From assembly GCA_048938105.1 (NCBI GenBank), contig JBHLMN010000023.1:40254-104253 (forward strand): DNA of 64,000 nucleotides, given 5' to 3'. The translations under genes were made by a program, and so were the position numbers. Positions 788 through 61,729 of the stretch are shown piece by piece. Each line of letters opens with the position of its first letter. Positions within the stretch are counted from its first letter, which is position 1. This stretch comes from Promethearchaeota archaeon (GTDB taxonomy: Archaea > Asgardarchaeota > Heimdallarchaeia > Hodarchaeales > Hodarchaeaceae). Under the pieces are notes generated by a model that saw only the letters and a program-made list of their open reading frames with translations, did not search any database and had not been told where the DNA came from.

Positions 788-2303
788 TAGAATCTTTTTG
801 AATAAAGTCAAAACTTTCCTTCAAGGCGATAGGTATCTGACGAAGGAGATTAGAAAGATTAAAATCTCTTTCCGCAAGTTCTCCTGCTCTTCCATTAATA
901 TATGCACCAATGCAAGCAGCATGAAAAGGCATTTCTACTTGCGTAATAAATCCAGCAATCAAACCTGCTAATATATCTCCCGTTCCTCCTCGTGTCATCC
1001 GAGGTGTACCACTTTTATTTATCTTCATATAGCCTGAACTATCAGTAACAATATCCCAGTGCCCTTTTATTACCCACACGTTGGAATATTGAGCTGAGAC
1101 ATCTTGTACCAACTGATATCGTTTAATGAACTCATGGGGACTACCAGGAAGTGATATATCTGTTAATACAGAAAATTCTCCAGCATGAGGCGTCAAGATA
1201 GTTTTTGAAGTAACATCCACTATGTCTAGAAGTTTGAGGGCATCTGCATCAATAACAATATGTTTATCAAATTTTTTTACTAAATTTAAAACTTTTGAAA
1301 CAGCTTTTTGTGTATCAGAGTGCTGTCCTAGTCCTGGCCCAAGAACAATGACGTCACTTTGCTTAATTAAGTCTATTGAAAGTACTTCTTCAGTTAAATG
1401 AGTAGAAGCATAATCATACACAATAAACTCAGGTGAATAAGATCGAATAGCTGAACTGACTTTCTGAGGTGTTAAAATTGATACTAAATCGACCCCTGAT
1501 TGAACAGCACCCATAGCAGCAAGCGCAGGAGCACCAGAATACGTCTCATTTCCTCCAATGATTAATATTCTTCCATTATCTCCTTTTTTTGACCACGAAG
1601 AACGGGATCTAAGGGCTAACAAGTCACCTGGGCCAATAATTCTTTCAGCTTCGGGAGGTACCCCGATAGGGATGATTCTTATCTTCCCAGCATTTTTTGA
1701 TGAGAGTCCTTGCTTTTGTTTGTGAAATATTCCAGTCCATTGTGGTGATAAAAACACATTAGCCTTTTCCCCTGTGTTAGGGTCAATCCCTGTAGGTGTA
1801 TCCGCGCTTATAATAATAGCTCCCTTTTCCTGCCATTTAGTAATTGACTGTACTAGTGTTGCAAGTGGCTCCCGCAAACTACCTCTTATCCCAGTCCCAA
1901 GTATTGAATCCACGATGAGTGTTGTTGATTTAATTTCAATTTTCTCAATGTCTTCTACTTGTTTTAACTCAAGAAGTTTGATAGATTCCGACATATTCTG
2001 TAGAATTTTCCAATTTTGAAATGTTGATCGCTTTGTAATATCTTTTTGGATCCCTACTAAATATAATCGAATTGGTACATTTCGGGAAAGATGTCGTGCT
2101 GCAACCATTCCATCGCCGCCATTTCCGCCTTTTCCAGCGAATATTACAATGTCAGATCTATTAGTTGTGTTATATACCTCCCAAATTAATTCCCCTAGCC
2201 CTCTTCCTGCGTTCTCCATCAAAATAATCCGATTTACTCCAAGATATTCGGAGTTTACATCTGCAATACTCATTTCGAGCGTGGAAATCATCTCTGAATT
2301 CAC
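765..2303 (-). CDS. nnr: Bifunctional NAD(P)H-hydrate epimerase/dehydratase (YjeF N+C)
   Basis: LMENAG, GKGGNGGDG, DTPTG in N domain; KGDNGRILIIGG, YSGAP, GPGLG, DADAL, LTPHAGEF, GGTGDILAG in C domain. Confidence 0.95.
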   Translation of the reverse strand: MNSEMISTLEMSIADVNSEYLGVNRIILMENAGRGLGELIWEVYNTTNRSDIVIFAGKGGNGGDGMVAARHLSRNVPIRLYLVGIQKDITKRSTFQNWKILQNMSESIKLLELKQVEDIEKIEIKSTTLIVDSILGTGIRGSLREPLATLVQSITKWQEKGAIIISADTPTGIDPNTGEKANVFLSPQWTGIFHKQKQGLSSKNAGKIRIIPIGVPPEAERIIGPGDLLALRSRSSWSKKGDNGRILIIGGNETYSGAPALAAMGAVQSGVDLVSILTPQKVSSAIRSYSPEFIVYDYASTHLTEEVLSIDLIKQSDVIVLGPGLGQHSDTQKAVSKVLNLVKKFDKHIVIDADALKLLDIVDVTSKTILTPHAGEFSVLTDISLPGSPHEFIKRYQLVQDVSAQYSNVWVIKGHWDIVTDSSGYMKINKSGTPRMTRGGTGDILAGLIAGFITQVEMPFHAACIGAYINGRAGELAERDFNLSNLLRQIPIALKESFDFIQKDSITKTASH

Positions 2304-2368
2304 TTTAAATCACCAGAGAGAATAAAATGAAGGATAATAAAGATCGATTAGACTGTTACTAATTCTTT

Positions 2369-3904
2369 ATGAAAAATTTTGCTACCAATAAATTTTCAAA
2401 GTCCTCAAAACAGTACAAAGCATCAAAGGATAGATGTGATTTGGACTATCTATTTCTATTCATCCTAATCGTTAACATCATTTCAGGAATTCTTCTTCTT
2501 CCTTATCCAATCAATCTCTTTCTACTTGCGATTTCTTCACGTAAATGGAAAGATCCTCGAGTTCAAGAGTATTATAAGGAATTTGAGTATCCTAGTGTCA
2601 CAATTCAACTACCTATATTCAATGAGTCTAGGGTCATTCAACATACTCTTTCTACTATTACCAAGCTAGTATATCCTCGGGAGAAATTACACATCCAGAT
2701 TCTTGATGATTCTACTGACCAAACATCAGTAATTATAGAAAAAGAGGTTTTATCTCTTGAAAAGGAAGGAATTATCTGCGAAATAATTCGTAGGAATAAT
2801 AGAGAAGGGTATAAAGCTGGAGCACTAGCAAATGGACTAAAACATGGAGTATCCGAGTTTGTGGCAATATTTGATGCTGATTTTATCGTTAATCCTCATT
2901 TTTTGGAACGATGTGTTCACTATTTCAAAAATAATGATCAAATTGGCGCAGTTCAAACCAGATGGGCTCATTCCAATCTTCATTATTCATTTTTTACTCG
3001 TTCTATGTCAATTGGGCTCGATGGACATTTTCTTGTGGAAAAGACTGGAAGAAAGAAGAGAAATGCCTTCATTACTTTTAATGGTACAGGTGGAATATGG
3101 CGACGCTCAGCAATAGAAGAAAGTGGAGGGTGGTCTTCAACAACACTTGCAGAAGATTTGGACTTAGCTTATCGTACTCAGGCGAATGGGTATGAAATTG
3201 TTTATTTGAGGGATGTGACAAACTTACAAGAAATTCCTCCTACTCTAAGATGTTGGATTATCCAACAAAGTAGATGGTCAAAAGGATTTTCTCAAAACTT
3301 TAGGAAAAATTTTGTTCTATTTTGGAGGAATTCATACGGAAAATCACGTATTCAAGGTACAATTCATTTCACTCAATATTTCGTACCAGTATTGATCTTA
3401 ATTAATACTAGTACAGGTTCACTATTACTGTATTTTTCGCAGTTCGAAGGTGGTATGTTTTTTATTTTTGGTATATTGTTTTCTATTGCATCCATATTAG
3501 GAATACTTGCATATATATTTGCTATTTTGCGAGCAAAAAGACCTATAGCAAATATTATATTGATTCCACTATTCTTGTTTTGGGGAGCTGGGTTAGTAGT
3601 TAGGATGGGATTAGGTGCCCTTAATGGACTATGGAGAAAGGGAGGAGAATTTATTAAAACACCCAAGTTCGGTTTATCAGATAATTACAAAAGTAAGAGC
3701 GTTAATATTCGTGAAAAAATTCCCTTAGATAAAATATTTATTGCTGAGATAATATACATAGGGATTTTAAGCCTGGGAATAATAAAAGCCCTTGAATTAG
3801 GAGTCTCATACCTATCACAAGCGGTATTTTATATTTTTCTTCTTCTCAGTATGATTAATTTAGTCATATCTGAACTCTTACACGCAATAAGCACTCAAAA
3901 ATAG
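2369..3904 (+). CDS. Cellulose-synthase-like processive GT2 glycosyltransferase (membrane)
   Basis: QLPIFNE, DDSTD, GYKAGAL, FDADF, LAEDLD, QQSRW motifs and C-terminal TM helices; true start may be TTG at 2441. Confidence 0.9.
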   Translation: MKNFATNKFSKSSKQYKASKDRCDLDYLFLFILIVNIISGILLLPYPINLFLLAISSRKWKDPRVQEYYKEFEYPSVTIQLPIFNESRVIQHTLSTITKLVYPREKLHIQILDDSTDQTSVIIEKEVLSLEKEGIICEIIRRNNREGYKAGALANGLKHGVSEFVAIFDADFIVNPHFLERCVHYFKNNDQIGAVQTRWAHSNLHYSFFTRSMSIGLDGHFLVEKTGRKKRNAFITFNGTGGIWRRSAIEESGGWSSTTLAEDLDLAYRTQANGYEIVYLRDVTNLQEIPPTLRCWIIQQSRWSKGFSQNFRKNFVLFWRNSYGKSRIQGTIHFTQYFVPVLILINTSTGSLLLYFSQFEGGMFFIFGILFSIASILGILAYIFAILRAKRPIANIILIPLFLFWGAGLVVRMGLGALNGLWRKGGEFIKTPKFGLSDNYKSKSVNIREKIPLDKIFIAEIIYIGILSLGIIKALELGVSYLSQAVFYIFLLLSMINLVISELLHAISTQK

Positions 3905-51615: not shown

Positions 51616-52617
51616 ATGGTGGTTGAATACGTGAAAGAGTACTTTTTAAAGGCTAGTAATGCCTTGACACGTCTAAATAATAGTGTCTCAACTAATGCTC
51701 GAAGTGTTGCAGATATTACATTGAAGATCTATACAAAATTTGAGGAGATTCGATACACAAGTGAAGCCATTCCTGATTTCATTCTTCATCCTAATCAAAC
51801 CAAATCCAACCTCAAATCGAGTGGTGAAATACGGGTTGCCCAATTGCTTGCTTCTATTCTTTGTGAGCGAATTACAGATCAATCAATGCGATTAGCTGAG
51901 GATCTTGATTTTAGAGAAGAGGATTTGGATGTTCGAGAAGAAATCCGTGTGATTCACGAACATGTTACCCGATTGAGTGAAGTTATCCAAGTTCAAAAGA
52001 AATTAGCTGATGGTGCACCTGTTTCAACTGAAAGCATTAAAGACTTGCAGAAAAAATACGATACTCGCATTAAACAGCTAGAACAAGAGCTTTTGCGTAA
52101 AGAAGGTCGTGCTTTAACTGTAACTGCTCTAGATGCCACAAAAAAGCCGAAACTGTTTGGAAAGGGAAGATTTGAAAAAACACTAGATGATCTAATTCTT
52201 GAATATGGGAAAAATCTTCGTGCTAGTTCTGGTGGTTATATTTCGCTCGCAAATCTTTATACAGCTTTAAAGACTCAAGTTCCTGATGTCGAATTTTCTA
52301 CAAAAGATCTTGAGAAATCCTGTAAACGTCTCAAAAAACAATCTCTCATTGAAGGAATCGTAAAACGATCAGGGGTCAAGATAGTAGAATTTGTTCCAGT
52401 CACTCTTGGGAGTGATGCGAGGAAAGTTTTTGATTTAGCAGTTAATAAAGGATATGTCACACTCGAAGAGGTAATAATGGGTACCAAATGGGATCAACAA
52501 CGTGTTGTTAGAGTTCTTGAAAGTCTTGTTAACCAAAAAATTGCTCGAAAAGTTTCCTCTCTTGATACAGGAGATCAATATTATTTTCCTGGATTATATG
52601 GGGACAATAGTTGGTAG
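51616..52617 (+). CDS. ESCRT-II Vps22/Vps36-like (EAP30) protein with N-terminal helical/coiled-coil extension
   Basis: Tandem winged helices GGYISL..L, DLEKSCKRL, FVPVTL..D..KVFDLA..KGYVT, KW...R..RVLE.L, YYFPGL. Confidence 0.85.
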   Translation: MVVEYVKEYFLKASNALTRLNNSVSTNARSVADITLKIYTKFEEIRYTSEAIPDFILHPNQTKSNLKSSGEIRVAQLLASILCERITDQSMRLAEDLDFREEDLDVREEIRVIHEHVTRLSEVIQVQKKLADGAPVSTESIKDLQKKYDTRIKQLEQELLRKEGRALTVTALDATKKPKLFGKGRFEKTLDDLILEYGKNLRASSGGYISLANLYTALKTQVPDVEFSTKDLEKSCKRLKKQSLIEGIVKRSGVKIVEFVPVTLGSDARKVFDLAVNKGYVTLEEVIMGTKWDQQRVVRVLESLVNQKIARKVSSLDTGDQYYFPGLYGDNSW

Positions 52618-52627
52618 GTGAAATCTT

Positions 52628-53518
52628 ATGGCAGAAGTAGAGAAATTTGGTGGATTATTTCGTAGAATAGGCGATGCTGTACATATTGGAACGAAAAAAT
52701 TTAAAGGAAAGTCAATTTTGAATTCAGATTTTGGTCCAGAAGCAGAAAGTTCATTGATTTGTAGGTTAAAATCCGAAGATTTTGATGGTTTTCGGAAGTA
52801 CGATGGATTCATTGTTAAAGACCCAGAAAATGCGATTTTATTACAATCTGGATCTTTAGTAGGGGTCGCTGGCAGTGGTATTTACGAGCTGGATAAAAGT
52901 GCTAAACGACCTGGAAGTGAAATTATCTGGGTAACAAAGCGGGAATTCATTATCAAATGGGGAACACCTGGGATTTATACCTCTGATAATATAATGGTTG
53001 GTTGTTATGGTATTTCTCGTATGAGGGTTGTCAACCCCCGTAATTTTATTATGAATGTTGTTTCACATAAACAGTACTATTCTGGTAATGAATTAAAGAA
53101 TTGGGTCAAGCAGACAATTATAGCTGCCGTAAAACATGTTTTATCTCGATATTCTGTACCAGAGATGCTCAAGGAGCGTAGAAGTTTAGAAATCCAAACA
53201 CGTTCAGAACTTGGACCTGAAACTTCTCGTTGGGGATTAGAGTTAGTTGGACTGGATATTGGGGGCTTCAAAGTACCTGATGAATATCAAGCCTTGTTAT
53301 CATATGAAATCGAAAAACAGGTTTTGAAGCAACGCAGGGAGTTAGCAGAAGAAAGAAAAATGTTTGATGATTTAACGGAAAAAGTAAAGAAATATGAACA
53401 TATGCTTGAACAAGCTGATGAAATGTTTCTCAGTGGTAAAATCTCAGAGAAAAAGTATAAGGAACTTACAGATAAATATTCTAAAAAATTAGCTCAATTT
53501 AAAGCTCAAATTTCATGA
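52628..53518 (+). CDS. SPFH (band-7)-like protein with C-terminal helical hairpin
   Basis: IVK..ENAILL..G, IKWGT, YG...RV.NP..F, WGLEL; tail EMFLSGKISEKKYKEL. Confidence 0.75.
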   Translation: MAEVEKFGGLFRRIGDAVHIGTKKFKGKSILNSDFGPEAESSLICRLKSEDFDGFRKYDGFIVKDPENAILLQSGSLVGVAGSGIYELDKSAKRPGSEIIWVTKREFIIKWGTPGIYTSDNIMVGCYGISRMRVVNPRNFIMNVVSHKQYYSGNELKNWVKQTIIAAVKHVLSRYSVPEMLKERRSLEIQTRSELGPETSRWGLELVGLDIGGFKVPDEYQALLSYEIEKQVLKQRRELAEERKMFDDLTEKVKKYEHMLEQADEMFLSGKISEKKYKELTDKYSKKLAQFKAQIS

Positions 53519-55279
53519 TAATTTATTTTCCTGCAAACTTCCTCCACATTCTGGGCATAAAATCATTTCTACTGTACTCATTTCTTTGTAGCAATCCAGG
53601 CATACTTTTAAGCTACAAGATGTGCAGAAATAGTTAATAGAATCAGTTTTTGGAAGTTCACATACACCACAAAGAAATTTTTCTTCGTGTTTTTTCAATT
53701 GTAAGGTCATTTCTCGAATGTTGATCTTCCCTTGAATTACACCACGTAAGATATAGTTTTCTAATAATACGATTGTATCGCTATCAGATCGGTTTGATAA
53801 ATCTATTATTTGTTTGAGTGGAATTTCAGCTTTAGACGACTTTTCTAGAAATTCAGAGAGACTTGGATCTAATTCAGATGATTTAAGTGAAATTGGTTCG
53901 TGTTCTATCCATCCGATTTTTAAAGGACCCTTTTTGCAGAAATGACACTCCTCAGTGCTAACTAAATTATAGGAATGAGTGTAATTAACTCTACAATATG
54001 GGCAATATCTGGGAAGATCGATAATAAATGCAGAAATATTTCTACAAAACGGACATTCATGTTTACTTCCAGTAGAACGGCAATTTGAGCACATAATTCG
54101 TCTACAATTTTGACATTCAAAATAAAGATCCGGATCAGTATATGAAGATGTGTCTATTTGGCAAAAAATTTCAAAATGGTCTACACCTTTAACTAAAAAG
54201 GGATCAGAGGTTTCTCCCGAGATAAGTCGTAATCCAAGGAGTTTCGCTAGCTTAAAAATCCGATCTAAAAGTTTTAATGGGTCTAGATTCAATGATGATG
54301 CTAAATGTTCAACAGCAATTCCATTTTCGAACCACTCGTTTAAAGAAGGAGCAATGAAATCTTCTGTAGTTAAAGTCCCCTTTAAACTTTGATTTAAAAT
54401 ATTTAACAGTTTAAAAAAATCAGACCTGTCTACATCGAGACGTTGAATCCAGAAATCAATAGGAATATTACGATAAACGAATATATCTTTTAAGATTTGG
54501 TTTATAATGTCCATAATTGGATAGAGGTAATTGTAATTAGCAGAAAAAATATAGCTGATTTGGTCACGATTTGCCTCCAAAAATTCTAGACATTTCTCTT
54601 CAGAGAGTTGTGTTAATTTACTAATATGGCTAATAGAGACTTCAGATTCCAAGAGAAAACTTGTATCGATAAAACGAATGACATATTCGATATTTTTTCG
54701 AATATCTGAGGGAGATGAGAAGTTTAAAGAAGTGAAATTATATATTCGTTGTTTTATTGGATCAATGTAACCAATGAAATGACTATCCTGAGCAAGAAGC
54801 TCCAGAACACCTTCCAAATGTTCTTCAGCCCAGTAAAGCTGGTTCAATAGGTATTTCAATCCTATTGCCGTGGTAGTGTTTAACCTTTGTCTGATTTCTG
54901 CTTTGGCTCCAGGTAAGGTATAGAAATTTCGGTTTATTATATCAAAGAATCCCTCAAAACTTTGAGCTCCTATTTTAATTTGTTGTTCTAGTAATTCTCC
55001 TGGTAAGTTTGTAGTGTCAATAAGATTACATATGTCTATAAAGCCTTTTGTTGCCAATTCACGGGATATTAATTGGTGAAGGAAGTTAATAGGGATGAAT
55101 TTTTCATCATCAAAACTAACAAAGCCATTCAGCTCATTTGAGCCAATTTTTGTGCGTAAAAATGCAGCAATAACGCTTGGATTTTCCTTCGGAGCCATTT
55201 CACGGAATTTAAGAGGAGTATTTGCCATTTGAGCCTTTGTTAACCATTGATGTCTCTTTCTCCCAAACATTGGTATCAC
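53513..55279 (-). CDS. Putative E3 ligase: winged-helix repeats (UFL1-like), RING-like finger, Zn ribbon, PCI, C-terminal RING-like finger
   Basis: CQNCRRIMCSNC...CPFC; PCI-like LENYILRGVIQGKIN; C-terminal CGVC...CTSC...CLDC...CPEC. Confidence 0.7.
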   Translation of the reverse strand: MIPMFGRKRHQWLTKAQMANTPLKFREMAPKENPSVIAAFLRTKIGSNELNGFVSFDDEKFIPINFLHQLISRELATKGFIDICNLIDTTNLPGELLEQQIKIGAQSFEGFFDIINRNFYTLPGAKAEIRQRLNTTTAIGLKYLLNQLYWAEEHLEGVLELLAQDSHFIGYIDPIKQRIYNFTSLNFSSPSDIRKNIEYVIRFIDTSFLLESEVSISHISKLTQLSEEKCLEFLEANRDQISYIFSANYNYLYPIMDIINQILKDIFVYRNIPIDFWIQRLDVDRSDFFKLLNILNQSLKGTLTTEDFIAPSLNEWFENGIAVEHLASSLNLDPLKLLDRIFKLAKLLGLRLISGETSDPFLVKGVDHFEIFCQIDTSSYTDPDLYFECQNCRRIMCSNCRSTGSKHECPFCRNISAFIIDLPRYCPYCRVNYTHSYNLVSTEECHFCKKGPLKIGWIEHEPISLKSSELDPSLSEFLEKSSKAEIPLKQIIDLSNRSDSDTIVLLENYILRGVIQGKINIREMTLQLKKHEEKFLCGVCELPKTDSINYFCTSCSLKVCLDCYKEMSTVEMILCPECGGSLQENKLS

Positions 55280-55395
55280 CCAAATCTCTTGCTGTACAAA
55301 TTTCAGGTAAAAAAAGTGAGAAAAATTCTTTTTATAAAATCTTTAGTCTTTCATAAAATAAAAGTATAATAAGAAAAACTTGAGGAAATAATACA

Positions 55396-55710
55396 ATGGC
55401 TCAACAAAAGATTAAATGTACAAATTGTGGTTATATTCCCCGAGATCTCCCTGTTTCTGGGAGCTGGTACTGTCCGAAGTGTGGAAAACGTACAGAAATT
55501 CCCCACCACCGCCCACGAGTCGCTAGAAAATTCTATAAGAAGCCACGAATAACTCAAAAATCTCGAGATCAAGTAACAAGCAGAATCTATGATAAATTAA
55601 CATATGAAAAAGTTCCCGATCTTGGGTTCAAAGAACCTTATTTAAAACCAAAAATTCCTCCAATTCTCCCCAAAAGAAGAGATAAAATACGATTATTTTA
55701 TAAAAAATAA
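55396..55710 (+). CDS. Small basic Zn-ribbon protein
   Basis: CTNCG...CPKCG; GAGG RBS. Confidence 0.65.
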   Translation: MAQQKIKCTNCGYIPRDLPVSGSWYCPKCGKRTEIPHHRPRVARKFYKKPRITQKSRDQVTSRIYDKLTYEKVPDLGFKEPYLKPKIPPILPKRRDKIRLFYKK

Positions 55711-55750
55711 TCAAAAGTATTGTTAATTGATACAAAAGGTTATTATTTCT

Positions 55751-56980
55751 TTAATTCTGAAATTTAATTTGCAAACGTATTTCTTCATCATCAATCAAAG
55801 AACTTAGTGTTATCCGATCACCATCAGAAAGAAATTTTTGGATGATCCCATTTTCAGGTATCATAAAGTTACCACGAAACCCAACATAATCTTTTTTGTG
55901 TTCTTCTCGAATTGTATCAAGAATAGATCTAAACTTTGATCTACAATCTACTGTTACGATTTGAATGGAATCTACAATGGTATTAGATTGGCCACATACT
56001 AGGCAATTTGGATCAGGAACTAGATTGAAAGTGTTTATTGTCCCTGTTAGTGCAGAATATATGGTAAACGAAGGAATGCGGAATCTATGAGATTTCAATA
56101 AACCTTCAAGCGTTTTACGTTCTCTTTTTTTCATTCTCTCTTTTTTTTCTAGAAAAAGAGACTTTAGGATCTCTTGAGATTGGATTCCACTGACTACTGC
56201 ATTAACTGTGATGAGACTGGGTACGTGGAAAAGGACTAATTGCATGAGTTCTTTTTCATCGAATTTTCCAAAATTATATTTATTAGCAAAATTATTTGCC
56301 AATTTCGTAAGTTCCGCAATATCTTTGGCTGAATTTTCAATAGGTGAGCGTACATGAGTTGTACTAAATTCATAAAGAGCTTTCCAAGCACAATGTTCTC
56401 TCTCACGAGGAACTCCCACTAAAGTACAAGGAGCTGTTAAAACCCGAGTTTCATCAGGAGGTTGAGGGGTTTCACAAGCCAAACAAGCAGTAACATTTGG
56501 TTTTATATACTGAATTTGGCCGAAGTAGCCATCTGTAGCTGAATCTATTAAAGTTAATTTAAGGTCAACTGCTATTGCATTCAGATATTGTCGTGCCAAA
56601 AAGTTATCTACGCAACCAGCAATGATGTCAACTTCGTGAAAAATCCTTTGAGGTAGGTTTTGGAGGAGGTTAGAATAACTTTCAATCTCAATATCAGGAT
56701 TAAATCTTTCTCGAATCCGCTTTCTTGCTATTTCTGCCTTTTTTTTCCCAACATCTTCTTCTTTAAACAACATTTGACGATTTAAGTTTGAGAATTCTAT
56801 AGTGTCCACATCAACAAGGATTAAACGACCAACGCCTAATAAAGCTAAGTTCTTAGCTACTTCGCTACCTGTCCCTCCAACTCCTGCTATTAAAATCGCG
56901 CTATCTTCAATAATATGTTGATCCCAAAGAGATAAACGTTCTTGTCGGTCATATTTAGAAGAAGGAAGATCTTGTGTCAT
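55751..56980 (-). CDS. Ubiquitin-activating enzyme E1 (UBA3/UBA2-like, with catalytic-Cys insertion)
   Basis: YDRQ, GVGGTG, D.DTIEFSNLNRQ.LF, TACLAC, PCTLVGVPREREHC, C-terminal CLVC and Ub-fold-like domain. Confidence 0.92.
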   Translation of the reverse strand: MTQDLPSSKYDRQERLSLWDQHIIEDSAILIAGVGGTGSEVAKNLALLGVGRLILVDVDTIEFSNLNRQMLFKEEDVGKKKAEIARKRIRERFNPDIEIESYSNLLQNLPQRIFHEVDIIAGCVDNFLARQYLNAIAVDLKLTLIDSATDGYFGQIQYIKPNVTACLACETPQPPDETRVLTAPCTLVGVPREREHCAWKALYEFSTTHVRSPIENSAKDIAELTKLANNFANKYNFGKFDEKELMQLVLFHVPSLITVNAVVSGIQSQEILKSLFLEKKERMKKRERKTLEGLLKSHRFRIPSFTIYSALTGTINTFNLVPDPNCLVCGQSNTIVDSIQIVTVDCRSKFRSILDTIREEHKKDYVGFRGNFMIPENGIIQKFLSDGDRITLSSLIDDEEIRLQIKFQN

Positions 56981-57029
56981 ATCTTGAAATCTTCCTAATA
57001 GAATCCTTTAACATTACAATAAGAGGGAA

Positions 57030-57359
57030 TCAACCCCCCTTAATCTGATCTGGAACTATCATGAGAATTGCATTTTGTTCGATTCCATAGGAAGAAAGAT
57101 TGTTTGAAGGATTCATTCTTCTTCCCTTGAATAATAAAGCGATTGGTACAACTTCTGGGATATTAAATGCATCACGAGCTGCTGTGATAGCTTGAAATAC
57201 AGTTCCATTAATATTAATGTATTTTTCACGGATATTTTGATCTGGAGGAAGTTGTGGATCTTTAAAGCGAATTTTTATCATTTTTTCAATACCACTGTCA
57301 GGAGCTTTTCCTGTAGAAGTAGAATCCCATATTACGTCCTTTTTACTCATTTTTTTCAC
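57030..57359 (-). CDS. Ubiquitin-like protein ending in GG
   Basis: Beta-grasp pattern LLFKGRRM...LSSYGI...ILMIV, C-terminal KGG-stop, adjacent to E1. Confidence 0.9.
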   Translation of the reverse strand: MKKMSKKDVIWDSTSTGKAPDSGIEKMIKIRFKDPQLPPDQNIREKYININGTVFQAITAARDAFNIPEVVPIALLFKGRRMNPSNNLSSYGIEQNAILMIVPDQIKGG

Positions 57360-57371
57360 CTTTCTGTCTAC

Positions 57372-58166
57372 TTAAGTATAAAACATACGTTCAATTTCTG
57401 AAAGTGTAGTAAGAATATCTATTCGTCCTTTGGCATAATCCTCTAAAGGTCCTCGAATAAGAGGGTATTTAGTTAGAATATCACTTTCAAGACCTATAGG
57501 TAAATTCTTTTTTCTCTTAATGATAAAATTTATTACTTCACCATTTTGGGCATAAAATCTTACAGTAATCTCTTTTTTTGCTGCTGATGCATCATAGTTT
57601 GCAAGAATTTGACGTATGAGAGGATCATGTTCTTCTTGAATCGCAGCAGAAGCTTCAGAAGATGCCATAATGGGTTCTCCCATAACCTGGGGGAGTTCTT
57701 TTTCAGCCTTCTGATAGATTTCTTCTAATACGTCCAATACTGAACTTGAGCCAGGGGTCCAGTTTTTCATTACTTTCAAATCGTTGATTTCACAATCTAA
57801 GACTTCTCTAAGCTTAGCAGGACCATCAATGTAGGGTCGATCAGGCAAATCATCCAACACAAGAAGAAGAGGAAAAGCATATTCCTTTACTTGCATCTTA
57901 ATCCTTAGTTTACCTACTTCATCACCAACAAATTCCCCAGGAAAATTTTCAAGGATTTTCTGTGATTCTTGATAAATAAGAAAGTAATTTTCAGCTTCCT
58001 CCTCTGCATCCATCATTTTGGCTTCTGCTGGTGTAATAGCTGCCCGTTTAAGGTAATTTGTCATGTCACAGTATTCACACTTTACAGGGTGCTGATATGA
58101 TGGTCTTATTGGAAGGGGGGCCCCACAGCCGCTACATTGAGAAATATCAGTTTGAATATCTTCCAT
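57372..58166 (-). CDS. Zn ribbon plus inactive E2-fold (UEV/BRE-like) protein
   Basis: CSGCGAPL..CEYC; LP.RP.I...L..MKNW.P.SS.VLDVLEEI resembles the UEV C-terminus; no HPN motif. Confidence 0.6.
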   Translation of the reverse strand: MEDIQTDISQCSGCGAPLPIRPSYQHPVKCEYCDMTNYLKRAAITPAEAKMMDAEEEAENYFLIYQESQKILENFPGEFVGDEVGKLRIKMQVKEYAFPLLLVLDDLPDRPYIDGPAKLREVLDCEINDLKVMKNWTPGSSSVLDVLEEIYQKAEKELPQVMGEPIMASSEASAAIQEEHDPLIRQILANYDASAAKKEITVRFYAQNGEVINFIIKRKKNLPIGLESDILTKYPLIRGPLEDYAKGRIDILTTLSEIERMFYT

Positions 58167-58225
58167 TTTTTTTGATCACCCATTATGTGAGGAATGTTCG
58201 TGCAAGATGAGTCAGTCTTTAGACC

Positions 58226-58315
58226 TTAAAAAGCTAGCTCATTCTACACCTTTTCTTCCATTTCCTAGCCACAGCTTTAAATATCGGCAACGGTGCATTA
58301 TTTATAAGCTAGCTT
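58226..58315. promoter_or_regulatory. Divergent promoter region of the Ubl locus with two AGCTAGCT palindromes abutting TATA-like boxes
   Basis: AGCTAGCT at 58232-58239 next to minus-strand TTTTTAA; AAGCTAGCTT at 58306-58315 next to TTTATA. Confidence 0.4.
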
Positions 58316-58387
58316 TAGTGTTAAATGAGATTGAATTTTACTTTATCATAGATTAGGTAAGGATAAAAATGGAAGGATGGTAAGATC

Positions 58388-58930
58388 GTGCAGGATTTAC
58401 ATTCTAGACGACTACGAGAAGAGTTCAAACGGATGCTGAAAACTTATCCCCCAAAAACAAGTCCCATTAAATGGACTATAGTCAATAATGACCTTCATCA
58501 TTACAAAGCGACTATTAAAGGAAAAAAAAATACTCCTTATGAGGGAGGGAAATGGAAGATCACTCTTGACTTACCTTCTGAATATCCCTTTAAACCTCCT
58601 ATTATCAACTTTTTAACCCCTATTTATCACCCTAATATCGCAACTGGTAAAACTCAATGGAAGTGGGGCTCCAATGTATGTTTAAGTCTTGTAAATTGGA
58701 ATAATTTAGGGAAACCTGGTGGTTGGAAGGAAACGATAACCTTGCCAAGCGTTTTTGAACATATTGAAATGATGCTAGATGTTTTTAAGACAACTGGGGA
58801 TGTGGATTTTCCAGAATATCTTGTTGATCCAAATGATCCTTTTAATCCTAAAGCTGGAGAGATTATGAACACAAATTTTGATAAATTCTGGGAAATAGCT
58901 GTTAATTGGACCAAAAAGCATGCAAAGTAA
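58388..58930 (+). CDS. Ubiquitin-conjugating enzyme E2
   Basis: RRLREE, TPYEGG, YPFKPP, TPIYHPNI, catalytic VCLSL, WTKKHA. Confidence 0.96.
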   Translation: MQDLHSRRLREEFKRMLKTYPPKTSPIKWTIVNNDLHHYKATIKGKKNTPYEGGKWKITLDLPSEYPFKPPIINFLTPIYHPNIATGKTQWKWGSNVCLSLVNWNNLGKPGGWKETITLPSVFEHIEMMLDVFKTTGDVDFPEYLVDPNDPFNPKAGEIMNTNFDKFWEIAVNWTKKHAK

Positions 58931-58962
58931 ACCTCTTCTAGAATCGGTATTGTGGATGATGA

Positions 58963-59562
58963 ATGTCTAATCATAATAAACAAAAAGATTTGAACTCAGA
59001 AAATTCTGAAATAACAGAAGAAAAAACTACTGATAAAATACAAGAAAGCTCCTTTAGTAGACAAGTGGAAATCAAAAAGGTAAAAATTTCTTCATCTCCC
59101 CAAGTTCAGTCAGTCTCAATCTTAGGAAATCTACTTGATGAAATAACTGAATATTCGGTAAAATCTATGCCTAGGGAAGCTATTGGTCTGTTAGGTGGAA
59201 GAGAACTACGTCCCAAAGAAATAGAAATATTAAAAATAATTTTTGTGTCAGAAGGTGACGAAATCTCTGTTTCCTTTTCTGATGAAGATTTTGAGGCTTT
59301 CGAAAATATTTTAGAAGATGATTGTTATTGTTGTGGGTGGTGGCATTCTCATCCAGGATATGGCTTATTTCTGTCTCAAACAGATATAAATACTCATATT
59401 TTTTCTTTTCAGCTCCATAATGATCTTTCTGTTGCACTTGTTATTGAACCTACTATAAGAGATATGACTGGCCGTGCCGCTTTTCAATTTTACCAAGTTA
59501 TAAGCGAAGATAAGAAGGATTCTTTCGGATACAAGGAAATTGCTAGCTATATACAACATTAA
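58963..59562 (+). CDS. JAB/MPN+ metalloisopeptidase
   Basis: EAIGLL, GWWHSHPGYGLFLSQTD, ALVIEP. Confidence 0.95.
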   Translation: MSNHNKQKDLNSENSEITEEKTTDKIQESSFSRQVEIKKVKISSSPQVQSVSILGNLLDEITEYSVKSMPREAIGLLGGRELRPKEIEILKIIFVSEGDEISVSFSDEDFEAFENILEDDCYCCGWWHSHPGYGLFLSQTDINTHIFSFQLHNDLSVALVIEPTIRDMTGRAAFQFYQVISEDKKDSFGYKEIASYIQH

Positions 59563-59750: not shown

Positions 59751-60560
59751 ATGAGTTCGATGAAGTTGAATTGGGGGTTTTTTGAGTTTCATCTCGAATA
59801 TTTAACTCGTTTTTTCCTTCAAGATGGATATGGGATGATAGACTATATTTTGATTTTCCTTGGTCCAGGGACAGTTTTATTCTTTACATTCTACCTTTTA
59901 TGGGCTGGAAGGCGAAAAAATCGCAAAATTATGCATTTATCACGTGAAGCTTTACTAGATGTCTTTGCAAACGAATTTGATGATCTAGTTATGGAGCAGA
60001 TGAGTTCAAACGGGGGTTTATTAATTCCCAAGTACAAGAAATCTTATGATATACCTTTCCAAGATTTTCGTGTAGTATTTGCCCTAGAAGAAAGGCATCT
60101 CATGTTATCAGTCATCATCTCATGGTTTTCAGGAGTAAATGATTATATTGCACTAGAGGCAAACTCGAAAAAGGGAGAAGTACGTACTCAAATTCCTACC
60201 AAGATTCAAATTATACCTAAACATGAAGAAGGTCAAATAAGAAAACATCAGGATCTCCTGTTTAAACTGGAAGATATTGAACTTGGAGTAAAAAGATTTG
60301 ATGATGTTTTTTTGGTGAAAGCGACCACCCAACGGACAGGAACATACTTTCTAGGTGATAAAAACCTTCTGAAACTAATTCACAATGTTAGAAAAGTAAT
60401 TGTTAGAATTTCAGTTGATTCTGCTGACGACCCATCTCTTCGTATTTATGCACGAATTAACAAAGATTTGAATCTTGAGAGGTTACACGCCCTTTTCATT
60501 GCATTTTGTGATCGGATTAATGAGGTTTCTGAAAAAGTGGTCATGAAGAAAAAACGATAG
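59751..60560 (+). CDS. Single-TM protein, CCDC47 (PAT complex)-like
   Basis: TM followed by GRRKNRKI; LEERHLMLSVII.WF....D.IAL motif. Confidence 0.5.
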   Translation: MSSMKLNWGFFEFHLEYLTRFFLQDGYGMIDYILIFLGPGTVLFFTFYLLWAGRRKNRKIMHLSREALLDVFANEFDDLVMEQMSSNGGLLIPKYKKSYDIPFQDFRVVFALEERHLMLSVIISWFSGVNDYIALEANSKKGEVRTQIPTKIQIIPKHEEGQIRKHQDLLFKLEDIELGVKRFDDVFLVKATTQRTGTYFLGDKNLLKLIHNVRKVIVRISVDSADDPSLRIYARINKDLNLERLHALFIAFCDRINEVSEKVVMKKKR

Positions 60561-60604: not shown

Positions 60605-61168
60605 TTATAAAAGATCGATTTTTTCAGTCACTCTTTGACGGAGCCATTCAAGTCCTTCCTCGACGTTAAAACCAGTTTTAGCTGAAGTGGGAACGATAGC
60701 ATATGAATGTGTCGTGACTTTGTGAAGGTTAAGCCCTCGCGCAACCTCTCCAGCTGAAGCAGCATTTTCTAGATCTTGCTTGTTGGCAAGTACTAAAATT
60801 GGTATGTTTTCTACCTTATCATTGTCAAGGACATATTTCCATAACTCCATCCTAGCTTCAGTGAGTCTGGGCCTATCAGCTGAATCTACTACATATACGA
60901 TTCCCATACTACCTGACATGTAGCTTTCCCAAAGAGATTCACGAAAAGCTTCTTGTCCCCCAATATCCCAAGAAATAAATCGTACATTCCCAGAACTGAA
61001 TTCATCAACATTCATCCCCAGTGTTCGGAAAGTACTACTGTTAAATTCTCCAGAAGTAATTCGTTTGACTAATGTGGTTTTTCCAGCCTGGTCAAGACCT
61101 AACCACGCAATTTTCACAGTTAACTTTTCTTTGGCAAATTTAGCACGGAGCTTTGAAAGGAAACTCAT
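60605..61168 (-). CDS. Arf-family small GTPase
   Basis: Amphipathic N-helix, GLDQAGKTT, TLG.N, WDIGGQ, NKQD, SAKTG. Confidence 0.95.
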   Translation of the reverse strand: MSFLSKLRAKFAKEKLTVKIAWLGLDQAGKTTLVKRITSGEFNSSTFRTLGMNVDEFSSGNVRFISWDIGGQEAFRESLWESYMSGSMGIVYVVDSADRPRLTEARMELWKYVLDNDKVENIPILVLANKQDLENAASAGEVARGLNLHKVTTHSYAIVPTSAKTGFNVEEGLEWLRQRVTEKIDLL

Positions 61169-61177
61169 TTAGGGCAC

Positions 61178-61729
61178 CTATCTGCTTTTCTGTGACATTC
61201 TACGTTGAAACCTGTCGCTCATCCACTGCCAAGGTTCCTCAACCCCTTCACCTGTTAAGGCTGAGCATGGGTAGACTGCGAATGTTCTTGGTCTTGCAGC
61301 CATCTCCTTCTCGAGCTCTAACGTGTGGATAATTCTTTCCAATGTCATTGCTTCTCTTAAATCTTGTTTATTTGCCAAGAAAAGGAATGCAGAGTCTTCT
61401 GGCGCCCATTGAATGACATTTTTCAACCATTTTCCTGCATTTTCAACTTTAGATCTGTCTGCAGAATCAAATACAAACACAATACCTGATGCATCTGAAA
61501 CAAATGGTTTCCATAGGCTAGTAGGAAATGTGGCTTGACCACCCAGATCTGCTGCCATTACTTCAATATTGCCAATTTTTAAAGTTTCAATATTCATCCC
61601 CATTGTTGGAACGGTCTCTAAATCATCATCTCCCTTAAGTCTTTTTACTAATGTAGTTTTCCCCGCATTTGCAAGACCAACAAATGCTATCTGATTTTCT
61701 ATTTCTCGACCAAACAATTTTGTCGGCAT
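61178..61729 (-). CDS. Arf/Sar-family small GTPase
   Basis: GLANAGKTT, PTMG.N, DLGGQ, NKQD, CSALTG. Confidence 0.93.
   Translation of the reverse strand: MPTKLFGREIENQIAFVGLANAGKTTLVKRLKGDDDLETVPTMGMNIETLKIGNIEVMAADLGGQATFPTSLWKPFVSDASGIVFVFDSADRSKVENAGKWLKNVIQWAPEDSAFLFLANKQDLREAMTLERIIHTLELEKEMAARPRTFAVYPCSALTGEGVEEPWQWMSDRFQRRMSQKSR

Follow-up and report, generated by a model that had tools for sequence, protein, structure and literature searches.

A probable third ubiquitin-type conjugation cassette in a Hodarchaeales genome, with a divergent modifier that faintly resembles UFM1

The closest described counterparts of the system reported here are the archaeal ubiquitin (Ub) operons, including that of Caldiarchaeum subterraneum, which encodes Ub, E1, E2, a small RING protein, and Rpn11 (PMC5654768, PMC6043591), the last of which trims the Ub precursor (PMC6043591), and the Asgard ubiquitin-ESCRT (endosomal sorting complex required for transport) clusters (PMC9192718). 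With respect to the modifier UFM1, Picchianti et al. (2023, PMC10183829) found UFM1, UFC1, and UFSP2 only in eukaryotes and UFL1 and DDRGK1 also in Asgard archaea, where they placed the origin of these two proteins, before UFM1, suggesting for them a UFM1-independent function. Köstlbacher et al. (Nat Microbiol 2026, PMC12962969; bioRxiv 10.1101/2024.07.03.601958) report Ufm1 homologues in nine Asgard clades, detected by a structure-based search. Here, we describe a gene for a ubiquitin-like protein (hereafter, the Ubl) in a 64,000-nt stretch of contig JBHLMN010000023.1 of a Promethearchaeota archaeon from the order Hodarchaeales; this whole stretch is referred to as the window, and its numbering is used for all coordinates given without a locus identifier. 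The product is probably a divergent ubiquitin-family (ubiquitin/SUMO-type) β-grasp modifier of Hodarchaeales that serves as the tag of a dedicated conjugation cassette, the third in its genome.

Positions 53513-59562 encode the Ubl together with an E1, an E2, a protein of the RING type, and a JAMM protease, as in archaeal Ub operons such as that of C. subterraneum (PMC5654768, PMC6043591). Unlike the archaeal and Asgard Ub operons, including the ubiquitin-ESCRT clusters (PMC9192718), the cassette has as its tag an order-restricted paralogue rather than the ordinary Asgard ubiquitin, and this paralogue is distinguished by a tail at its N-terminus, an extended loop (DPQLPPDQN), and a C-terminal tail that contains Pro and is one residue longer. 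Further differences are that the RING is carried by a UFL1-like scaffold of 588 aa and that a zinc-ribbon protein leads the Ubl operon. Judged by its sequence, the Ubl appears to be a real, conserved, order-restricted ubiquitin-type modifier, a variant of the archaeal ubiquitin systems with a faint but genuine likeness to UFM1.

The longest open reading frame (ORF) at the locus (57030-57359, minus strand) comprises 109 codons from GTG and ends with ...LMIVPDQIKGG-TGA, whereas the plus-strand reading of the same interval is full of stops. The true start is most likely the ATG at 57350, yielding a product of 106 aa, because the GTG sits inside a GGTGA box, most relatives start with MSKKDV, and the ESM Atlas entry begins at Met residue 4 of the GTG-numbered protein. 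Residue numbers below are counted from the GTG. The gene and its parts are as follows:

57030-57350, minus strand: the Hodarchaeal Ubl gene, from the ORF and its translation; 106 aa from ATG, MSKKDV...IKGG, with the stop TGA at 57030-57032
57356-57360, minus strand: GGTGA, a Shine-Dalgarno-like box read directly from the sequence, preceding the ATG at 57350 by 5 nt and enclosing the GTG used as the ORF start
57282-57350, minus strand: N-terminal extension, residues 4-26 (about 23 aa), with a KKDV.WD motif conserved in the alignment of relatives; predicted disordered
57051-57281, minus strand: β-grasp core, residues 27-103, with β1 at 26-33, β2 at 43-50, a helix at 54-65, β3 at 73-77, a 3-10 helix at 88-91, and β5 at 98-103
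57033-57050, minus strand: C-terminal tail DQIKGG after Pro103 with exposed di-glycine, from the translation and the alignments to Ub and UFM1

The AlphaFold2 (AF2) model is a β-grasp of the ubiquitin type, with a predicted local distance difference test (pLDDT) score of about 80-85 for the domain and below 50 for residues 1-21; the sequence DPQLPPDQN forms the long loop between β1 and β2 of the core. The N-terminal extension is lysine-rich and nearly as long as the initial annotation had put it (about 25 aa). All motifs quoted there were found in the translation, namely DPQLP (34-38), AARDAFNIP (60-68), LLFKGR (75-80), GRRMNP (79-84), LSSYGI (88-93), and LMIVPDQIKGG (99-109). The C-terminal Gly-Gly is of the kind used for E1 adenylation and isopeptide formation: the Ubl ends in IKGG followed by the stop, and GG is invariant in the relatives. 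The proposal that the product needs no maturation thus holds for this gene; approximately one-fourth of the relatives have 1-7 residues beyond GG and in this respect resemble the Caldiarchaeum Ub precursor (PMC6043591).

Profile, sequence, and fold comparisons place the Ubl with the ubiquitin family. The best and only above-threshold Pfam match is Rad60-SLD (PF11976, 27.7 bits versus a cut-off of 23.8), a model that belongs to the same Pfam clan as the ubiquitin model and overlaps the same stretch of the Ubl, and all 19 of 19 relatives match both models at E<=10. A PDB search with the family profile retrieved ubiquitin chains, and hhalign aligned the family with a ubiquitin-domain profile over the C-terminal 41 columns (92-93% probability, score 39-40, P 3-5e-7). 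In direct comparisons with ubiquitin, BLASTP gave an E-value of 1e-5 over the LLFKG...GG half, and the Smith-Waterman score exceeded those of shuffled sequences with z = 6.7. NEDD8, ubiquitin, and SUMO1 took the top ranks in Foldseek with the AF2 model; SUMO, ubiquitin, NEDD8, and ISG15 differ in fold score by no more than about 1-2 Z units and are thus tied, and UFM1 is absent among the best 50 fold matches listed in each of three structure searches (Foldseek-PDB, VIA on Foldseek hits, and VIA wide). The Ubl shares with ubiquitin, NEDD8, ISG15, and SUMO the fold, the LxF.G....L..Y.I.....L.(I/V)V...GG half, and the enzyme types of its cassette; where ubiquitin has Ile44, the Ubl likewise carries a residue of the hydrophobic patch, Leu76. 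It differs from ubiquitin in the low identity (only 31% over 35 residues), the N-terminal extension, the score below the cut-off of the ubiquitin model, and the replacement of Lys48 and Lys63 (Arg80 and Gln95 in the Ubl alignment).

Homologues of the Ubl form 35 clusters at 55-95% identity, and every cluster with a named source comes from Hodarchaeales or other Asgard metagenome bins. The family alignment contains three invariant blocks (KDPQ.P, VPIALL.KG.R.N, and L.IVPD.IKGG), with the tail VPD.IKGG invariant across 19 relatives. When 300 Asgard genomes were surveyed with the family profile, the gene was found in 18 of the 19 genomes of its own family, in one of the two genomes of the sister family, and in one strong outlier from another class, whereas the approximately 278 other Asgard genomes yielded no strong match at E<=0.001 and a single marginal hit (21 bits). 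The family therefore appears to be confined to the order Hodarchaeales, as far as sampled. The only strong match outside the order is the outlier, an 87-residue match of 114 bits at the start of a contig (G069:C139:133-393), which could be explained by mis-binning, by transfer, or by a range wider than the order. In the genus of the studied archaeon, one genome has a second, partial copy covering positions 58-107 (G216:C1:1389201-1389350). A search of 1.8 billion representatives with the family profile produced 253 matches, of which only about six are single-domain clusters of the family and most others are polyubiquitins; since the scores of repeats sum, polyubiquitins swamped this search and it is unable to rank single-domain UFM1. 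The closest clusters in the ESM Atlas feature search were either unnamed or Rad60-SLD/ubiquitin.

The remaining components of the cassette are the following:

55751-56980, minus strand: E1, 409 aa, ThiF adenylation domain and catalytic-cysteine region (Pfam ThiF, 1.7e-55)
58388-58930, plus strand, divergent from the Ubl: E2, 180 aa, HPN and a downstream cysteine (Pfam UQ_con, 7e-24)
58963-59562, plus strand: JAMM/MPN metalloprotease, 199 aa (Pfam JAB, 7.6e-9; Prok-JAB, 1.1e-7), in which the motif HSHPGYGLFLSQTD was read
53513-55279, minus strand: UFL1-like winged-helix scaffold with C-terminal RING-like zinc fingers, 588 aa, from profile searches
57372-58166, minus strand: zinc-ribbon protein, 264 aa, an ORF forming the upstream gene of the Ubl operon

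The order of the upstream gene, the Ubl, and the E1 is kept in two distant relatives with 55-57% identity (L005 and L007). The E1 is of the canonical UBA1/UBA2/UBA3 kind, its PDB matches over residues 21-273 being UBA1 (8e-40), SAE2 (7e-32), and UBA3 (1e-29); the match to UBA5 is weaker (1.7e-19) and covers the adenylation domain (residues 19-172). The E2 is closest to UBE2D2/D3 in the PDB (8e-20), and a search for UFC1 at the locus gave no match. Both enzymes are therefore as initially described, i.e., an E1 that is not UBA5-like and an HPN-containing E2 that is not of the UFC1 type. The JAMM protein is probably the tail-trimming and deconjugating enzyme. The profile built from 23 homologues of the 588-aa protein matches UFL1 structures through its N-terminal winged helices (8b9x, 2.7e-7; 8ohd, 2.6e-6; 8c0d, 3.9e-6), and the C-terminus matches the NOT4 RING at 0.0017, making this protein a candidate E3. 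Complex prediction for the Ubl core and the zinc-ribbon protein scored 0.07 against a mark of 0.32, which counts for neither side.

What the analysis shows for the cassette is the class of fold, the family to which each component belongs, the conserved gene order, and the taxonomic range; its mechanism can be proposed by analogy with the Caldiarchaeum system, which has been reconstituted (PMC5654768, PMC6043591), and with work on Asgard ubiquitin-ESCRT (PMC9192718). The adjacent single-chain canonical E1 would adenylate the C-terminal Gly-Gly of the Ubl and take it as a thioester, whereupon the Ubl would be handed to the UBE2D-like E2 of the divergent operon and ligated to lysines, possibly with the aid of the neighboring UFL1-like winged-helix/RING protein. 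The JAMM protease would remove the Ubl and, in relatives that run past GG, trim the tail.

Two further Ubl systems are encoded in the same genome. An ordinary Asgard ubiquitin on contig C11 (84 aa, ...TRTTGGST, PF00240 58 bits, L001:1462-1716) is directly followed downstream by a compact 331-aa ThiF-type E1 (L001:1817-2812); this ubiquitin type, with an RTxGG ending, is present in 78 of the 150 Asgard genomes sampled. On contig C63 (approximately 201,000-205,157), two tandem Ubls with acidic N-terminal tails that end with IP(V/H)STAG (L003:1462-1914 and 2259-2606, minus strand; L088) precede an E1 of 416 aa, an E2 that matches UQ_con, and a JAB protease of 302 aa, which together constitute a second complete cassette. 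The STAG-tail type occurs in 55 of the 82 genomes of the class. The STAG-tail Ubl was also folded as a possibly better structural candidate for UFM1; ISG15, Ub, and SUMO are its best matches too, and UFM1 is absent among the best 50 listed. Elsewhere in the genome, a 914-aa protein on contig C20 (L089:217-2961, minus strand) matches Pfam E3_UFM1_ligase above the cut-off (26.2 bits, residues 378-487) and has a C1_2-type zinc finger at its C-terminal end; it is thus a second UFL1-like/zinc-finger paralogue in this genome, longer than the 588-aa protein.

The likeness of the Ubl to UFM1 can be measured in pairwise comparisons. BLASTP aligned the two with 24% identity over 84 columns (E 0.011), and the alignment is colinear over the whole domain (24-26% identity), with all four motif pairs in register: DPxLP (β1-β2 loop), A-x-x-F-x-(I/V)-P (helix end), G-x-x-x-NP, and I-x-P (following the last strand). 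The UFM1 counterparts that the initial annotation had named (DPRLP, AAEEFKVP, GIGINP, and LRIIPRDRVG) agree with real UFM1 sequences. The Smith-Waterman score of 49 was reached by none of 2000 shuffles (mean 24.0, sd 4.3, z = 5.8), whereas eukaryotic ubiquitin against UFM1 gives z = 0.05. Profile comparison with hhalign extends over 74-76 columns, with a probability of 2-20%, a score of 18-24, and P 0.021-0.0011; the STAG-tail family, with a score of 22-23, is on par. The scores of the individual groups, including those from a hidden Markov model (HMM) of metazoan UFM1, are as follows:

Hodarchaeal Ubl family (n=19): median pairwise score to UFM1 49; median metazoan UFM1 HMM score 3.6 bits
Four most distant members of the Hodarchaeal Ubl family: median pairwise score 32; median HMM score 1.1 bits
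STAG-tail Ubl family (n=47): median pairwise score 40; median HMM score 2.4 bits
Ordinary Asgard ubiquitin (n=26): median pairwise score 35; median HMM score 2.9 bits
Eukaryotic Ub-like domains (n=368): median pairwise score 22, maximum 42; median HMM score -0.9 bits

As a class, Heimdall-group Ubls are thus nearer to UFM1 than eukaryotic ubiquitin is, with the Hodarchaeal family marginally the nearest in pairwise terms. The Pfam Ufm1 model (PF03671, cut-off 27 bits), on which real UFM1 scores 142.8 bits, matched neither the Ubl at E<=1, nor its 19 relatives at E<=10, nor anything in the whole 5.85-Mb genome at E<=10. Our own UFM1 HMM gave 1.7 bits for the Ubl and at most 12.9 bits for the family, although its alignment consists of metazoan sequences only (the best 120 of 1549 hits) and a broader profile might reach further. 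When the PDB was queried with only the N-terminal half (residues 20-74, containing DPQLP and AARDAFNIP), UFM1 was not matched at E<=10. A preference for UFM1 was seen neither with profiles nor in the structure searches, since the Pfam Ufm1 model recognizes none of the 19 relatives, hhalign favors ubiquitin, and UFM1 is not among the best 50 folds; this is an outcome that the initial annotation had set against its own proposal. The UFM1 likeness is real but weak and not exclusive; it is not special to this gene, because another Heimdall-group Ubl family is similarly UFM1-like, and in all two other families of this group come close to the Hodarchaeal one.

In a phylogenetic tree of 81 rows and 83 columns (LG+C20+F+G4), the Hodarchaeal Ubl family is monophyletic (98/89), and it falls outside the clade formed by ordinary Asgard ubiquitin and eukaryotic Ub-like domains (100/93). 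Nesting within the ordinary Asgard ubiquitins, the placement that the initial annotation had set against an intermediate position, was therefore not seen. UFM1, whose branch measures 3.87 changes per site, attaches weakly to the STAG-tail family (89/68), with a warning of long-branch effects.

Several observations weigh against the assignment of the Ubl to the ubiquitin family. At 23.0 bits, it misses the cut-off of the Pfam ubiquitin model PF00240 (25.4); its ubiquitin likeness is concentrated in the C-terminal half (the 41 columns mentioned above), whereas the UFM1 alignment covers the whole domain; its family does not group with ordinary Asgard ubiquitin; the candidate E3 has the same scaffold as the ligase of UFM1; and forcing UFM1 and the Hodarchaeal Ubl family into a clade costs 5.4 log-likelihood units and is not rejected by the approximately unbiased (AU) test (p = 0.42). 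The placement of UFM1 in the tree is accordingly tentative.

A rival evolutionary reading takes the Hodarchaeal family as the closest surviving archaeal relative of UFM1; on this view, UFM1 would descend from a tag of this type that was already paired with a UFL1-like ligase, and UBA5 and UFC1 would have taken the place of the E1 and E2 at a later stage. Its attractions are the full-length colinear alignment (24-26% identity, BLASTP 0.011, hhalign P 0.001-0.02, z = 5.8), the highest median pairwise score to UFM1 among the groups tested (49 versus 40, 35, and 22), the UFL1-like candidate E3 in the same cassette, the unrejected clade, and the Asgard origin of UFL1 and DDRGK1 before UFM1 (Picchianti et al., 2023, PMC10183829). 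We nonetheless regard it as unlikely. The Pfam Ufm1 model matches nothing, and the hhalign probability is low; the UFM1 HMM barely separates the three Asgard Ubl groups (medians 3.6, 2.4, and 2.9 bits); the four most distant members of the family score lower against UFM1 (median 32); and the maximum-likelihood tree joins the long UFM1 branch to the STAG-tail family instead. Mature UFM1 ends with ...RDRVG, a single Gly after Val that is exposed by UFSP, whereas the Ubl ends with PDQIKGG-stop, a di-Gly tail that is one residue longer also than that of UFM1. All three enzymes belong with ubiquitin systems: the E1 is canonical and not UBA5, the E2 has HPN and is not UFC1, and the protease is a JAMM enzyme in place of the UFSP cysteine protease; no Peptidase_C78 match was found in the whole genome, and its only UFC1 match is weak (E 0.33, below the cut-off) and lies away from the Ubl locus. 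Accordingly, of what was initially proposed, the mixture of ubiquitin and UFM1 features is borne out and can be quantified by z-scores and motif register, whereas a kinship that would make the Ubl an intermediate between the two modifiers is not supported. The UFM1-like motifs represent a weak but real full-length similarity retained by Heimdall-group Ubls generally, and the Ubl itself is not a UFM1. The Asgard Ufm1 homologues of Köstlbacher et al. (PMC12962969) are comparable with the Ubl as Asgard Ubls with proposed UFM1 affinity; the text of that paper does not identify these proteins, and it reports nine clades for them as opposed to one order for the Ubl family. A search of a literature collection retrieved no paper joining Hodarchaeales and UFL1.

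Even less probable is that the Ubl acts as a functional analogue of SUMO with a disordered N-terminal tail. Rad60-SLD is indeed its best and only above-threshold Pfam match and is found in all relatives, the tail is disordered and lysine-rich, and SUMO1, SUMO2, and Rad60 SLD2 are among the fold matches. However, the E2 is closest to UBE2D and not to Ubc9, the E1 matches best with UBA1, and neither the tied fold scores nor two overlapping Pfam models of one clan distinguish SUMO from ubiquitin. Finally, the Ubl might not be conjugated at all and instead be a β-grasp sulfur carrier (ThiS/MoaD/SAMP/Urm1 type) or just a binding domain, the E1 then serving solely as an adenylyltransferase. A C-terminal GG and an adjacent ThiF-family enzyme would fit sulfur carriers as well, but this reading is very hard to reconcile with an E1 that aligns with UBA3 over residues 21-273, including the catalytic-cysteine region, and scores far above ThiF/MoeB, with the presence in the cassette of a genuine HPN-Cys E2 and of a JAMM protease, and with the lack of ThiS/MoaD or Urm1 Pfam matches in the Ubl and its relatives.

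With regard to the origin of UFM1, Picchianti et al. (PMC10183829) asked which role UFL1 and DDRGK1 had before it. The ubiquitin-family reading of the Hodarchaeales cassette offers a concrete and testable answer, namely that a UFL1-like scaffold shares its cassette with a tag of the ubiquitin type, a canonical E1, an E2 resembling UBE2D, and a JAMM protease; the proteins are small and soluble, making in vitro reconstitution possible. At the sequence level, Heimdall-group Ubls bridge ubiquitin and UFM1, between which no similarity is detectable when eukaryotic ubiquitin is used. If the Ubl is only a lineage-specific ubiquitin paralogue, one archaeon still possesses three parallel Ubl systems; if, as seems unlikely, it is instead the nearest living relative of the UFM1 ancestor, a ubiquitin-type tag with DPxLP, GxxxNP, and an IxP tail would already have been paired with a UFL1-like ligase in the archaea closest to eukaryotes, and UFM1 would have arisen from it.

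Several other genes surround the cassette. Between the E1 gene and the gene of the 588-aa protein, the plus strand encodes a 104-aa basic protein (55396-55710) with an N-terminal zinc ribbon (CxxC...CxxC) and weak matches to zinc-ribbon Pfam models. An EAP30/Vps22-36-like (ESCRT-II) gene followed by an SPFH/Band 7 gene (51616-53518, plus strand) is convergent with the 588-aa gene, and the same pair is found near the Ubl in the distant relative L005. On the opposite side, a 269-aa protein encoded beside the JAMM gene (59751-60560, plus strand) has weak Pfam matches to CCDC47, a PAT complex subunit (E 0.044), and DUF3137. Downstream of the cassette are two tandem small GTPase genes (60605-61168 and 61178-61729, minus strand) with the P-loops GLDQAGKTT and GLANAGKTT, and a Ras/Arf-like gene is also located near the Ubl locus of the distant relative L007.
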